IMG/VR virus record: IMGVR_UViG_3300020401_000016
Span: 5,863-69,862 of that record
From: a virus
DNA: 64,000 bases
Direction: 5' to 3' (one strand)
A program made the position numbers and the translations under genes. The notes beneath the pieces were generated by a model. It ran no database searches. It worked only from the letters and a program-made list of their open reading frames with translations, and was not told where the DNA came from. Each line of letters starts with the position of its first letter. The stretch's first letter is position 1. Of the stretch, positions 5,689 through 12,633 are shown piece by piece.

Positions 5689-6279
5689 ATGTCAACAGCA
5701 TTTGTGCTAGGCAACGGCACAAGTAGGCAAGGAATTGCCTTAGAACCATTGCGAGATTATGGCAAAATATATGCCTGCAATGCCGTGTTCAGAGAGTTTG
5801 ATCCCGATTATCTAGTGGCTGTTGATGCCAAGATGATATTTGAGATATGTGGGGAGAACTATCAATACAAAAAGCCGGTATGGACCAACGAAAACAGAGC
5901 CTTTAAGAAGTTTAAGAAGTTGAATTACTTTTCACCACCCCTTGGTTGGAGTTCTGGACCAACTGCCTTGCACCTTGCCACTAAAAATGCCCACACAAGA
6001 CTATATCTATTGGGTTGGGACTTCGTTGGCACAAGGGAAGGCAAGTTAAACAACCTATATGCCGACACTAAGAACTACAAGAAAAGCACAGACGTTGCAA
6101 CCTACCACGGTAATTGGATGCGTCAAACTTGCATTATTCTGCAGAAAAATCCACTAAAGAGATATATACGTGTAGTCAGAGATGGTAAATCGACGTTCAA
6201 GGCGCAAGATTTACACAAATACGCGAATTACAGTGAGATTACTATTTCTGAGTTCAAGAATACACACAACCTGCCATAA
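5689..6279 (+). CDS. DUF115/Maf-like nucleotide-binding protein (possible glycosyltransferase-related fold)
   Basis: AFVLGNGTSR, IYACNA, PDYLVAVD, SSGPTAL, LYLLGWDF. Confidence 0.55.
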   Translation: MSTAFVLGNGTSRQGIALEPLRDYGKIYACNAVFREFDPDYLVAVDAKMIFEICGENYQYKKPVWTNENRAFKKFKKLNYFSPPLGWSSGPTALHLATKNAHTRLYLLGWDFVGTREGKLNNLYADTKNYKKSTDVATYHGNWMRQTCIILQKNPLKRYIRVVRDGKSTFKAQDLHKYANYSEITISEFKNTHNLP

Positions 6280-9165: not shown

Positions 9166-10335
9166 ATGTCAGAACTAACAGAAGCTCGCTGGCAGGATAC
9201 AAAGACAGCATTACTAGAAGGTCTTTCTGGTAATCAGAAGTCTGTAATGGAAGTGACTTTAGAGAATACAAGATCGTATTTGAACGAAGCCGCTACGGCA
9301 GGTGCCACTTCAGCAGGTAATGTTGCAACTTTGAACAGAGTGATTCTACCAGTAATCAGACGGGTTATGCCGACTGTGATTGCTAACGAATTGGTTGGTG
9401 TACAACCGATGACTGGCCCAGTTGGACAAATCCACACTCTAAGAGTAAGATACGCTGACACAACATCAGGTGGTGCAACAACAACCACTGCTGGTGAAGA
9501 GGCGTTATCACCGTTCAAGATCGCAGAAGCATATTCTGGAAACGACGGCAATCCGGCAAAAGGTGGCGCAACAGCGGCATTAGAAGGATCTGCAGGTAAC
9601 AGATTATCAATCCAAATCTTGAAACAAACAGTTGAAGCGAAAACTCGTAAGTTATCAGCAAGATGGACTTTTGAGTCTGCTCAAGACGCTCAAGCACAGC
9701 AAGGTATCGACATCGAAGCAGAAGTAATGGCGGCATTAGCCCAAGAAATTACTGCTGAAATCGATCAAGAGATCTTAGCATCTTTGAGAGCATTAGCGGC
9801 TACAGAAGAAACATTCGACCAATCTGCTGTGTCAGGTACGGCAACATTCGTAGGTGACGAACACGCGGCTTTGGCTGTATTGATCAACAGAGTAGCGAAC
9901 AAGATCGCTCAACGTACAAGAAGAGGCGCAGGTAACTACGCAGTAGTATCACCACACGCTTTAACTGTACTTCAATCAGCAACAACTTCAGCGTTCGCAA
10001 GAACAACTGAAGGTGCATTTGCGGCTCCAACTAACAACAAAATGGTTGGTACGTTAAATGGTGCTATGAAAGTATACGTTGACACATATGCCTCAGACGC
10101 AACACCAGTATTGGTAGGTTACAAAGGTGCATCAGAATCTGATGCGGCGGCGTTCTACTGCCCATACATTCCGTTGATGTCTTCAGGCGTTGTTCTTGAT
10201 CCAACTACTTTTGAGCCAGTAGTAAGTTTCATGACTAGATATGGTTATGTAGAGTTATCAAACACTGCATCATCACTAGGTAATGCGGCAGACTACTTAG
10301 GTGAAGTAGCGATCAGCAACGTTTCTTTCTCATAA
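9166..10335 (+). CDS. gp23: Major capsid protein (T4 gp23-like)
   Basis: VGVQPMTGPVGQI, VEAKTRKLSARWT.E.AQD, EITAEIDQEI, AFYCPYIPL, FMTRYG. Confidence 0.97.
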   Translation: MSELTEARWQDTKTALLEGLSGNQKSVMEVTLENTRSYLNEAATAGATSAGNVATLNRVILPVIRRVMPTVIANELVGVQPMTGPVGQIHTLRVRYADTTSGGATTTTAGEEALSPFKIAEAYSGNDGNPAKGGATAALEGSAGNRLSIQILKQTVEAKTRKLSARWTFESAQDAQAQQGIDIEAEVMAALAQEITAEIDQEILASLRALAATEETFDQSAVSGTATFVGDEHAALAVLINRVANKIAQRTRRGAGNYAVVSPHALTVLQSATTSAFARTTEGAFAAPTNNKMVGTLNGAMKVYVDTYASDATPVLVGYKGASESDAAAFYCPYIPLMSSGVVLDPTTFEPVVSFMTRYGYVELSNTASSLGNAADYLGEVAISNVSFS

Positions 10336-10356
10336 TAGAGAGCGAAGCAAAAATTT

Positions 10357-10386
10357 AAAAGGGCGGCTTTATGTCGCCCTTTTTTA
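10357..10386 (+). terminator. Rho-independent terminator after the capsid gene
   Basis: AAAAGGGCGGC-TTTAT-GTCGCCC followed by a T run. Confidence 0.9.
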
Positions 10387-10420
10387 TTGACTGAATATCC
10401 ACATTTTTTTCAAAAAACGG

Positions 10421-10448
10421 TTGACTTTTATTTTTTTGATGCTATATT
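10421..10448 (+). promoter_or_regulatory. Sigma70-like promoter for the putative ncRNA
   Basis: TTGACT, 16-nt spacer ending TGC (extended -10), TATATT; predicted start near 10455. Confidence 0.65.
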
Positions 10449-10454
10449 GTAAAC

Positions 10455-10670
10455 ATAAGCATTAGGAACGTAATTAATTCCTAATTATAGTGCAAGGAAG
10501 AGGCCTTTACCAGAAGGGTCGAACTTGACTAACCAGGGGTGGTACCCAGGCATTATCCGGAGAACGGAAGGTGTCACATCGCAGTCACTGGCGGGGTTAG
10601 GTTGTACGTATTAGAATGGTATTCGGGTACGTGCTTGTAGGTGTAACCAAGTCCTACCTATTTTGCTTAT
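10455..10670 (+). ncRNA. Putative structured ncRNA (~216 nt), family unknown
   Basis: No ORF in the track, GC-richer than flanks; terminal pairing ATAAGCA/TGCTTAT plus at least six internal helices found by eye. Confidence 0.7.
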
Positions 10671-10740
10671 ACTTTCTTATACTACCATTTAATTTTTTAG
10701 TTGTCTTTTATCTTTCTCAACAACCAATCTAAATACTTTT

Positions 10741-10968
10741 ATGCATTGGTTAGTAATCTACTTTTACATACAAGGTAGTTGGATAGCAGGTGACTTTGTT
10801 CGTCCTGATGGTTGGAGCAGTATTGCTTACGACACTAAACAACAGTGTGTTGAAAAAATGTATATGGCTAATGAAAACCTACAAAATACTGAAGGTTTAC
10901 AAAATAAGGCTATTGCAATTTGTCAAGAATATAAACCTGGACCGTTCACAGCAACACCAAAATTCTAG
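10741..10968 (+). CDS. Hypothetical protein
   Basis: 75 aa, two Cys, TAAATA 5 nt before the ATG. Confidence 0.6.
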   Translation: MHWLVIYFYIQGSWIAGDFVRPDGWSSIAYDTKQQCVEKMYMANENLQNTEGLQNKAIAICQEYKPGPFTATPKF

Positions 10969-10997
10969 TTGACTGTTTACCAAAATTGTTGTATAAT
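10969..10997 (+). promoter_or_regulatory. Sigma70 promoter for hemB
   Basis: TTGACT-N17-TATAAT; ATG 11004 lies at the expected +1. Confidence 0.85.
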
Positions 10998-11003
10998 GTG
11001 CAT

Positions 11004-11816
11004 ATGGATTTTATACAACCAATATTTGTAAATCAGACTAGTGACATCGTGCAGGGAAAATTAGGACCTGACAATGCAAGTTTTCCTTTACAAAAAATTA
11101 ATGATGCAATCCAGAAAGATATTGACGTTGGTGTAGAAGATTTTCTTTTATTTGTTACTCCAGACAAAAAAACAAATACTCCGGATTGGAAATTTCAATC
11201 AGATGTTGTTAGTCATATCAAATCAAAATTTAACAAACAAATAAATTTAGCAGTTGATGTGTGTATGTGTTCTACTACATTAGACGGACATTGTTGTATA
11301 TTAGATAAACCACAAACCACCCAAGCACTTTTTATAGATTTAGGTCGAAAATTAAAACAAGCAGGTGCTGATATTTTAGCACCTAGTGATATGCAAAAAG
11401 ACACTGTGAAAAATTTAAAAATTGAAACACAATTACCAATACTGTCTTACATAAAGTTTAGATCAAATTTTTACAGTTCATTTAGAGACCTTGCAAATAG
11501 CACACCTAGTTCAGAAAGATTTTATCAAATCAGTGTTGCTGATCCTCACAGTGCAAAGATCATTGCTTCGCAATATGATAAAGATGGTGCTGATTACTTG
11601 ATGTTAAAGCCTGGTATGACAACTATAGATTTAATCAGTATGATAAAATGTAATACATATAAACCAGTTGGAGTGTATCAAGTCAGTGATGAATATTTAG
11701 GTTTGCCAACCGATAAACATCTTTATGAAACATATCAAATATTCGATAGAGTAGGTTGTAATTTTATGGTTACATACGGTGCAAGAAAATTAGTAACAAT
11801 GGTTAGTAAATATTAA
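11004..11816 (+). CDS. hemB: Porphobilinogen synthase (ALA dehydratase), Zn-type, lacking N-terminal arm
   Basis: DVCMCSTTLDGHC Zn site, GADILAPSDM, SYIKF..NFYSSFRD, GADYLMLKPG (Schiff-base Lys), PVGVYQVSDEY. Start set to ATG 11004 because the upstream codons overlap the promoter. Confidence 0.88.
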   Translation: MDFIQPIFVNQTSDIVQGKLGPDNASFPLQKINDAIQKDIDVGVEDFLLFVTPDKKTNTPDWKFQSDVVSHIKSKFNKQINLAVDVCMCSTTLDGHCCILDKPQTTQALFIDLGRKLKQAGADILAPSDMQKDTVKNLKIETQLPILSYIKFRSNFYSSFRDLANSTPSSERFYQISVADPHSAKIIASQYDKDGADYLMLKPGMTTIDLISMIKCNTYKPVGVYQVSDEYLGLPTDKHLYETYQIFDRVGCNFMVTYGARKLVTMVSKY

Positions 11817-12174: not shown

Positions 12175-12633
12175 ATGGGAAGACCACTTAACAAAAGGCT
12201 GTTTACAACAGCGGCTGGCGGTGCAACTGCTGGTGCAAATGAAATAAAAGTAAACTTTAATTCAGGCGGTGGAGTAAAAGAAGGTACTATAATTAGGCAA
12301 AAAGGATCTAAAAAATTCGTTGTTGCTGAAACAGGTGCCGCAGATACGGAACACACTTGTACATTAACTACAGGAAAATTACCTGCCAATTTAGCGTCAG
12401 GTGAGATGAGTATCTCTGTACAAGGTAACGATAATGAAACTTACACAGTAAGTAAAATTGCTGGACGTAAGTTAACAGTATCAGCGCCAACATCTACTGG
12501 ATCTAACGCATTAGACGGATTATCTCTAAAATGGGATTTCGCGGCGGCTAGTGCAGGTAAAGTAAAAGTTGAAGAGGCTGGTGACGATGACGTTGCTAAC
12601 ACAGATGACGACGACTTTACAGAAGATGCATAA
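12175..12633 (+). CDS. Probable virion structural protein
   Basis: AAGGAG SD, late promoter at 12085, MGRPLNKR...IIRQKGSKKF, acidic tail. Confidence 0.6.
   Translation: MGRPLNKRLFTTAAGGATAGANEIKVNFNSGGGVKEGTIIRQKGSKKFVVAETGAADTEHTCTLTTGKLPANLASGEMSISVQGNDNETYTVSKIAGRKLTVSAPTSTGSNALDGLSLKWDFAAASAGKVKVEEAGDDDVANTDDDDFTEDA

Follow-up and report, generated by a model that had tools for sequence, protein, structure and literature searches.

The stretch of viral DNA considered here, 64,000 nucleotides (nt) long (positions 5,863 to 69,862 of IMG/VR record IMGVR_UViG_3300020401_000016, hereafter the window), contains, shortly after a phage capsid gene, a structured RNA of about 216 nt on the plus strand (10455..10670), which is almost certainly a divergent member of the manA RNA family (Rfam RF01745). 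The source record is a 69.9-kb virus fragment with an estimated completeness of 20%. The capsid gene (9166-10335, plus strand) encodes a major head protein of the T4 type (PHROG 138, E 9.5e-98) and has a gene for a T4-type head maturation protease upstream. It is followed by an intrinsic terminator (10357..10385, plus strand), composed of a stem-loop at 10361-10379 and a T run, which a consensus terminator scan left unlisted and which was revealed by folding: 10350-10395 reaches -19.1 kcal/mol (z -5.4), and 0 of 200 shuffled sequences fold as well. About 35 bases past this terminator lies a sigma-70-type promoter (10421..10448, plus strand; 10/12 matches), with a -35 box TTGACT (10421-26), a TGn element (10440-42) and a -10 box TATATT (10443-48), the two boxes being separated by a spacer of 16. 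The predicted transcription start at about 10455, seven bases past the -10 box, is the first base of the terminal helix of the RNA. On the other side, the RNA is followed by a U/A-rich, unstructured spacer without a terminator (10671..10740, plus strand; -1.7 kcal/mol, z -0.14) and by an open reading frame (ORF) of 75 amino acids (aa) (10741..10968, plus strand), which has no Pfam or PHROG family and stands outside the conserved module, having only four close homologues (83-95% identity) and being absent from the other loci examined.

A preliminary description of the region, made from the sequence alone, had suggested that the RNA may be a novel phage non-coding RNA (ncRNA) or ribozyme, and had named a comparison with Rfam by Infernal as a check. 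This comparison (cmscan) gives a full-length manA match: 10462-10667 aligns with model positions 1-192 of 192 at 47.3 bits, with E 4e-11 for a 501-nt query and 5.2e-9 for the 64 kb searched with all 4227 families, and even a sub-threshold match of this kind suffices to remove the claim of novelty. The other Rfam matches within 10300-10800 reach at most 27 bits and all come from the terminator hairpin. The conserved structured RNA is real, but its family has already been described, and what is new is a divergent member in another phage lineage. That the element is a structured ncRNA and neither tRNA nor tmRNA was borne out, with 0 genes reported by ARAGORN in the window; within 10300-10800, no Rfam match at E<=10 was obtained for tRNA/tmRNA, 6S, RNase P or self-cleaving ribozyme families, and nothing points to a ribozyme.

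A blastn search of 50,697 phage records found a single relative, with 70.4% identity, in Pelagibacter phage Mosig, where it occupies intergenic sequence without annotation and precedes a rubrerythrin gene and gp32. On the manA model this relative reaches 64.0 bits, above the Rfam gathering score of 55.2 bits. When 13 related loci from viral contigs were scanned, three exceeded this score (L014 61.9, L003 57.9 and L023 57.5 bits), eight scored 34.7-54.5 bits and two were unlisted at E<=1e-4; the branch to which the window copy belongs (window-type) thus straddles the gathering score, which is an annotation cut-off. The previously known, classical manA copies score 171-191 bits on the same model. 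The family is too diverged for blastn, and the manA copy of Synechococcus phage S-CREM1 returns only itself from the phage collection. No manA match was found in Syn9, S-PM2 and S-RSM4 at E<=1e-3, nor is there a second copy in the window, where Rfam finds one and the other match to a 15-nt search word has three mismatches, which is at chance level.

This word, taken from the conserved junction at 10488-10502, was found in at least 119 viral-contig stretches, from which the window-type homologues were drawn, and a second pattern scan of viral contigs gave at least about 120 stretches. Nine chance loci were dropped by eye and by an identity below 0.47 (L013, L017, L029, L050, L059, L062, L076, L087 and L118). 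After removal of duplicates and of copies truncated at contig ends, alignment A1 comprised 78 distinct full-length homologues, including the window and Mosig copies; its search-word columns are invariant by ascertainment, and pairs touching them are informative only in a joint alignment (A2) of 47 window-type and 34 classical sequences, which was fitted to the model's structure. A model built from A1 only (R1) recovers 47 of 47 window-type sources and also 34 of 43 classical manA sources, at full length and with 25-56 bits (E 1.5e-5 to 2.6e-15), missing nine of the 43, S-CREM1 included.

The structure is strongly supported by covariation. Folded singly, the plus strand reaches -67.9 kcal/mol (z -2.41, with 1 of 200 shuffles as good), and the fold of the minus strand is not outstanding (z -1.16). 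In A1, 86.8% of the cells are paired, compared with 38-49% when partners are slid, 51 of the 68 pairs tested carry compensatory changes, and column shuffling attains none of these measures in 500 trials; in A2 the values are 88.8% against 35-45% and 60 of 67 pairs, again with 0 of 500 shuffles as high. RNAalifold predicts 41 pairs on A1, 34 of them with compensatory changes. Together with the Rfam alignment and the complementarity of loops described below, these pair counts define the manA-class RNA at 10455..10670 and its helices, all of which are given on the plus strand.

Nearly all of the helices proposed in the preliminary description withstood this analysis, some of them in part. The terminal helix P0 (10455-61 / 10664-70; ATAAGCA/TGCTTAT), which lies outside the Rfam model, and the hairpin P1 (10462-68 / 10478-84; ATTAGGAA/TTCCTAAT) each show compensatory changes in 6 of 7 pairs. 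The core is enclosed by a closing helix (10487-90 / 10658-61; AUAG/CUAU), which had been missed and which, in A2, changes as a block to GGAG/CUCC between the window-type and the classical branch. Next comes a short outer P2 helix (10493-96 / 10524-27; CAAG/CUUG), which likewise covaries with the classical branch in A2, one pair being A-U in 47 and C-G in 33 sequences and another G-C in 47 and U-G in 33. For P2 itself (10502-06 / 10516-20), proposed as GGCCTTT/AAGGGTC, the outer five base pairs are conserved, with compensatory changes in four, and the inner two A-U pairs were left out; by eye, relatives have the loop UUACCAGA where these would lie. P3 (10529-34 / 10595-600; CTAACC/GGTTAG), compensatory in 6 of 6 pairs, encloses three hairpins. 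In the first of these, P3a, the proposed GGGT/ACCC hairpin exists in a register shifted by one, as the family pairs 10536-38 with 10545-47, which is evident from an A-U pair at 10537/10546 in Mosig and a C-G pair at 10536/10547 in L021. P3b (10549-54 / 10570-75, plus 10556-59 / 10565-68; GGCATT.TCCG/CGGA.GGTGTC) shows compensatory changes in 8 of 10 pairs, and P3c (10580-82 / 10591-93), proposed as CGCAG/CTG.CG, is retained as a helix without its inner AG/CT, which is paired in only 34.6% of cells. P4 (10604-10 / 10628-34, plus 10614-17 / 10621-24) is compensatory in 7 of 7 pairs of GTACGTA/TACGTGC, and P5 (10637-41 / 10653-57; GTAGG/CCTAC) in 3 of 5, the other two being invariant.

Beyond these nested helices, two loop-loop contacts are well-supported inferences from the sequence comparison. 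Besides the nested pairs, an analysis of mutual information pointed to 10528-10602 and to 10620-10645; the latter is not an in-register Watson-Crick pair, and a test of loop complementarity was used instead, which counts distinct loop pairs and ignores kinship. The loops of P4 and P5 (10617-20 with 10646-49, plus strand) can form at least four contiguous pairs in 64 of 80 distinct loop pairs, with a mean run of 4.41 compared with 3.54 (standard deviation (sd) 0.09) for permuted partners, 0 of 500 permutations being as high, and with a mean duplex energy of -3.54 compared with -1.67 kcal/mol. The words that would pair differ between subgroups: UGGU/ACCA in the group of the window, AUGGAAU/AUUCCAU in copies linked to gp32, CAGA/UCUG and CGAGA/UCUCG in a divergent group, and CUGUA/UACAG, AAUGUA/UACAUU and UUAUGU/ACAUAA in classical copies. 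The signal for a contact between the loops of P3a and P3c (10539-42 with 10585-88, plus strand; UGGUA/UACC, UGU/ACA, UAU/AUA or UGC/GCA) is weaker, with a mean run of 3.58 against 3.28 permuted (0 of 500 as high) and runs of at least four in 16 of 33 pairs. A 'pseudoknot?' is marked for manA in the original family description (Weinberg 2010, Genome Biol 11:R31) and may or may not be one of these two contacts. A different pseudoknot had been proposed for the window, between ACUUG (10523-27) and CAAGU in the P5 loop (10648-52), which are complementary in 94.4% of cells and show 0 compensatory changes. It was rejected, being absent from classical manA by eye and competing with two better-supported pairings: ACUUG is taken up by the local CAAG/CUUG helix and the CCA of the P5 loop by the P4-P5 contact.

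The promoter is conserved together with the RNA. At a fixed distance from the RNA, a relaxed promoter pattern is present in 75 of 77 window-type copies and a strict one in 55 of 77, and for classical copies the corresponding numbers are 84 and 39 of 99; in random 70-nt windows of the same loci, the relaxed pattern occurs in 6-7% (6.7% for window-type loci) and the strict pattern in 0.3%. In Prochlorococcus phage P-SSM2, a copy of 181.6 bits follows TTGACA-17-TATAAT with TG directly upstream. At the level of sequence, then, the promoter-abutting position is a family-wide trait of manA, and the conserved pattern in 75 of 77 relatives backs the earlier proposal that the RNA is independently transcribed; we consider it very likely that the RNA has its own, predicted promoter. 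In several classical copies (e.g. L136, L141, L158 and L198), the -35 box TTGACA lies in the loop of a G/C stem that is followed by a T run (GAGGG-TTGACA-CCCTC-TTTTTTT), a motif that combines the terminator of the upstream gene with the promoter of manA and resembles the PeSL cassettes of T4-type phages.

What follows the RNA is, by comparison, highly variable. An intrinsic terminator is found within about 45 nt of 33 of 78 window-type copies, all of them among the 47 that are not linked to gp32, and by eye a new TTGAC promoter follows several of these terminators (e.g. L003, L025, L045 and L056). A [GT]ATAAATA motif, which we take to resemble the T4 late promoter, occurs 20-120 nt downstream of 23 of 76 window-type copies. 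The other 31 window-type copies lead into TATAAATA (28 of 76) and then into a gp32 gene (PF08804). In one group of loci (group B, e.g. L043 at 720-790, L005, L006 and L027), TATAAATA lies between manA and gp32 and is followed by an A-rich, G-poor and apparently unstructured leader of about 70 nt ending in AAGGAG; the combination of a structured element and an unstructured A/U-rich leader before gp32 presumably recalls the translational operator of phage T4 gene 32. A terminator lies within 100 nt of 32 of 96 classical copies. Many classical RNAs have a long conserved hairpin, AGACCUAAGAUGCAACUC...GAGUGGGGCAGAUGGUCU, with a U run directly on their 3' side (e.g. L158, L164, L169, L205, L137, L139, L147 and L163); this hairpin has no Rfam match at E<=0.001 in L158, L164, L169, L205 and L137, and could be either a terminator whose interior is conserved or another RNA element that has no name as yet. 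In 7 of 101 classical copies, ARAGORN places a same-strand tRNA 0-6 nt downstream, tRNA-Asn in six (L130, L149, L162, L193, L225 and L240) and tRNA-Asp in one (L235). The L161 copy abuts a tRNA, the L244 copy has a tRNA on both sides, and in S-CREM1 the annotated manA RNA is part of a tRNA array, in the order tRNA-Leu, manA, tRNA-Asn, with gaps of 0-1 nt. A tRNA directly 3' of manA is therefore nearly always tRNA-Asn (six of the seven ARAGORN calls plus S-CREM1, L121). The genes found downstream share no pathway and include gp32, transaldolase, phosphomannomutase, PurS, a 2OG-Fe(II) oxygenase, redoxin, rubrerythrin and tRNAs, or there is nothing.

The phage carrying the window copy belongs to a lineage other than the cyanophages. 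The head protein most resembles (66-72% identity) its counterparts in jumbo myoviruses, namely Sinorhizobium phage Phosso, Vibrio phage 2.275.O, Pseudomonas phage PA5oct and Cronobacter phage GAP32, and not those in cyanophages, and a capsid of the jumbo type on a 70-kb fragment fits the completeness estimate of 20%. The same head protein is encoded, with 71-97% identity, in 55 of 120 loci and lies just upstream of the RNA where this was checked (e.g. L022 and L042). The T4-type head genes, the viral contig and the occurrence in marine and seawater metagenome runs place the RNA in the setting of marine T4-like phages; the 3.6-kb stretch around it was found at 96-99% in 14 DNA-type marine runs and partly in six metatranscriptome runs.

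In several relatives, the gene order is the capsid gene, a glutamine aptamer (RF01739), manA, a freshwater-2 RNA and a homologue of the window ORF at 12175-12633, forming an island of three RNAs after the capsid gene. The glutamine aptamers score 43-60 bits (L042 742-791, L003 2812-2861, L014 1573-1622 and L049 2623-2669), and the freshwater-2 RNAs lie downstream of manA (L024 954-1040, L003 1882-1970, L010 2734-2816, L049 2121-2207 and L042 114-183) and precede the ORF homologues. The window has no glutamine aptamer match, either at E<=0.001 over its full length or within 10300-10800. It does have a freshwater-2 RNA (RF02980; 12108-12177, plus strand; 57.2 bits), the sole Rfam match in the window at gathering thresholds; this RNA extends as far as the start codon of a 152-aa ORF without a Pfam family (12175-12633). 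Freshwater-2 seems to correspond to a recurrent leader, GATAAATAC...GCCGCAAGGCGGACTTATG, that opens with a T4-late-promoter-like motif, and, since it recurs before homologues of this ORF, the 'freshwater' motif also occurs in marine phage contigs, where it leads one conserved gene. Between manA and freshwater-2, the window has three extra ORFs: the 75-aa ORF, a homologue of delta-aminolevulinic acid dehydratase (HemB/ALAD; 10969-11816, plus strand; PF00490, E 1.7e-45) with its own promoter (TTGACT-17-TATAAT), and an ORF of 89 aa. The ALAD homologue is absent from related loci and represents an auxiliary gene of tetrapyrrole synthesis in a phage with a jumbo-type capsid.

In the model that we favour, the sigma-70 RNA polymerase of the host would use the RNA's own promoter early in infection and begin transcription at about 10455, and the RNA would fold compactly, with the terminal helix joining its 5' and 3' ends, the closing helix surrounding a multi-helix core and the P4-P5 and P3a-P3c pairings holding loops together. 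The RNA itself would be the gene product, a stand-alone and stable phage ncRNA and not a metabolite switch acting on a downstream gene; a terminator or tRNA processing would define its 3' end, where that end is defined at all, and the conserved unit would be the promoter plus the RNA. We infer such a discrete function mainly because promoter and RNA are conserved while the 3' end varies, for which the RNA as product is the easiest explanation; in addition, copies in tRNA arrays, or with a terminator and then a fresh promoter, have nothing left to regulate in cis, and the length of some 200 nt, the invariance of the junctions and the two kissing loops suggest more than a stabilising hairpin. 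On balance, we regard a stand-alone early ncRNA as somewhat probable. The RNA would then act in trans, perhaps through its invariant junction and loop nucleotides, and binding of a protein or other macromolecule, as in a ribonucleoprotein, is our tentative guess at the mode. Whether the reading extends to manA-class RNAs in general, which would then be autonomous, early-expressed and trans-acting ncRNA genes and not riboswitches, spread over at least three myovirus lineages (cyanophages, pelagiphages and the marine lineage with a jumbo-phage-like capsid and an RNA island after the capsid gene), we consider evenly balanced.

Several observations weigh against this reading. With 47.3 bits, the window copy falls short of the gathering score and is unlisted at that threshold, and a profile search of the window's own virus record with RF01745, in which one candidate was scored, gave no match at E<=1; this result does not show absence, and cmscan nonetheless gives the copy its 47.3 bits on the same DNA. 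The RNA-library data consist of assembled contigs, which show neither ends nor strand. Run X17 contains a 175-nt contig that covers 10482-10656 with no differences and neither flank. Run X15, part of another study, has a depth of 11-15 across 10431-10672 and of 0.45 in the next bin; in the same run, however, 10310-10430, upstream of the predicted start, has a depth of 14.1, so that the cover may reflect read-through from the heavily covered capsid gene or carry-over of DNA. Runs X16 and X18 have no cover over 10431-10672, and 10794-11156 is uncovered in all four runs, a lack of cover that is no evidence in either direction. Overall, these data count as weak evidence in favour of the reading, hinting that RNA pools contain the RNA and that cover ends near its 3' end. 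The surroundings of individual copies also speak for a role in cis: the window copy has no terminator, its transcript probably continues into the 75-aa ORF starting 70 nt downstream, and it looks locally like a 5' leader; an ORF starts within 120 nt of 79 of 96 classical copies; and in P-SSM2 an ATG follows the closing helix by 20 nt.

It is on this proximity of downstream ORFs that the published cis-regulatory reading is based. The original description of 2010, which drew on marine metagenomes, T4-like cyanophages and two gamma-proteobacteria, proposed manA RNA as a riboswitch candidate, rated it 'Y' for cis-regulation and 'y' for riboswitch and listed it in the 5' untranslated regions (UTRs) of mannose/fructose, nucleotide-synthesis, ibpA and photosynthesis genes (Weinberg 2010, Genome Biol 11:R31). 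The S-CREM1 paper (2023) and a 2025 review keep the cis-regulatory label while calling the role of the RNA unverified. According to this reading, the RNA is the 5' aptamer of an early mRNA, which senses a metabolite or the state of the cell and controls read-through or translation downstream, the target being the 75-aa ORF in the window and an auxiliary metabolic gene elsewhere. The constant position directly behind a promoter, the conserved junctions and an aptamer-like pseudoknotted core all agree with it, and the terminators after 33 of 78 window-type and 32 of 96 classical copies are possible expression platforms. These terminators, however, show no excess complementarity to the RNA body: for 24 distinct terminators, pairing of the 5' half with its own RNA averages -7.91 compared with -7.81 (sd 0.27) for swapped partners, with 64 of 200 permutations as low, and the corresponding number for the 3' half is 48 of 200. 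The test is crude, and a terminator after an aptamer is also typical of a transcriptional riboswitch, which further counts against a stand-alone product; a competing expression platform was nevertheless found neither in the window, which has no terminator, nor, as excess pairing, in its relatives. A fresh promoter for the next gene is often seen by eye past the terminator, there is no space for an expression platform where a copy is fused to a tRNA or has tRNAs at its flanks, and the downstream genes have no common pathway. In the literature searched, which excluded subscription journals and supplements and hence leaves absence unproven, we found no manA ligand in 16 years, no transcript mapping and no stand-alone reading. 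Taken together, a riboswitch or regulatory leader is a serious competitor, which we hold to be the less probable one.

A more modest role would be a passive one: as the 5' part of a mobile promoter cassette, the RNA would bury the 5' triphosphate in its terminal helix and would protect early transcripts from the RNases of host or phage, by stabilising or insulating them, and it would travel with its promoter as accessory genes are shuffled. This role would explain why the first transcribed bases pair with the 3' end in a helix that covaries in 6 of 7 pairs, and it accords with the varying downstream passengers and with the PeSL-like composite terminator-promoter that is seen by eye before many classical copies. 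A stabiliser, however, needs no 200 nt, invariant junctions or two covarying loop-loop contacts, and in promoter-RNA-terminator units, as in copies within tRNA arrays, there is nothing for it to stabilise, which makes this explanation improbable. A self-processing RNA of a new ribozyme class would have in its favour nothing but its size, a compact fold with pseudoknots and nucleotides that are invariant at the junctions. No Rfam ribozyme family matches at E<=10, no conserved candidate cleavage site was identified, and the ends of the structure coincide with the promoter start and with terminators or tRNA-processing sites, so that self-cleavage is not needed to define them; we consider this highly unlikely.

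Ocean viruses commonly carry manA RNA, an orphan 'riboswitch candidate' ever since its description in 2010. To this picture, the present analysis adds a divergent branch under the Rfam threshold, an extension to a phage lineage with a jumbo-type capsid, the family-wide promoter-abutting position and copies with terminators or tRNA fusions. Combined, these additions amount to a concrete and testable alternative to the cis-regulatory reading, for which P-SSM2, S-CREM1 and Mosig, with copies at 142837-143034, 10215-10429 and about 108150-108363, respectively, are cultured systems, and the stand-alone reading is the part that should interest specialists.

Compared with known systems, the window RNA shares with manA RF01745 the P1 hairpin, the closing helix, P2 within a short outer helix, a P3 with three hairpins, a two-part P4 and P5, as well as characteristic words, including AGUG past the closing helix, the GGUGGU loop, a P3c loop containing ACC and UUG-GG..CC at P5. 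Like classical manA, it is found in a marine T4-like phage directly behind a sigma-70-type promoter; unlike the classical copies with their 171-191 bits, it lies far from the seed with 47.3 bits, and it has AUAG/CUAU instead of GGAG/CUCC as closing helix, UGGU/ACCA instead of CUGUA/UACAG as kissing-loop words and the well-supported extra helix P0 outside the Rfam model. Its branch further differs in a jumbo-myovirus-like and not cyanophage capsid, in a position after the capsid gene in 55 of 120 loci and in a terminator that often follows directly. Rfam assigns manA to the type Cis-reg (5' UTR); the ORF that starts 70 nt downstream in the window, without a terminator in between, agrees with this type, but 33 of 78 relatives have a terminator directly after the RNA and several classical copies abut tRNAs. 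The wcaG and glutamine (glnA) RNAs of cyanophages are likewise structured RNAs of marine T4-like phages that are found beside manA, wcaG together with manA among the tRNA genes of S-CREM1 and, in relatives of the window, the glutamine aptamer at a site after the capsid gene and before manA; their structures are unrelated to manA, and neither was matched at 10300-10800 or window-wide at E<=0.001. The copies in S-CREM1, L161 and L244 may also be compared with RNAs C and D of phage T4, which we take to be small stable RNAs of a tRNA gene cluster that are co-transcribed and processed with the tRNAs, a likeness of arrangement only. Finally, the PeSL cassettes of T4-type phages (Arbiol 2010, PMC2839356; Comeau 2014, PMC4122927) are composites of a stem-loop and an early promoter such as are seen by eye before many classical manA copies; PeSLs, however, are short regulatory or recombination motifs at the DNA level, whereas manA is a folded RNA of 200 nt.

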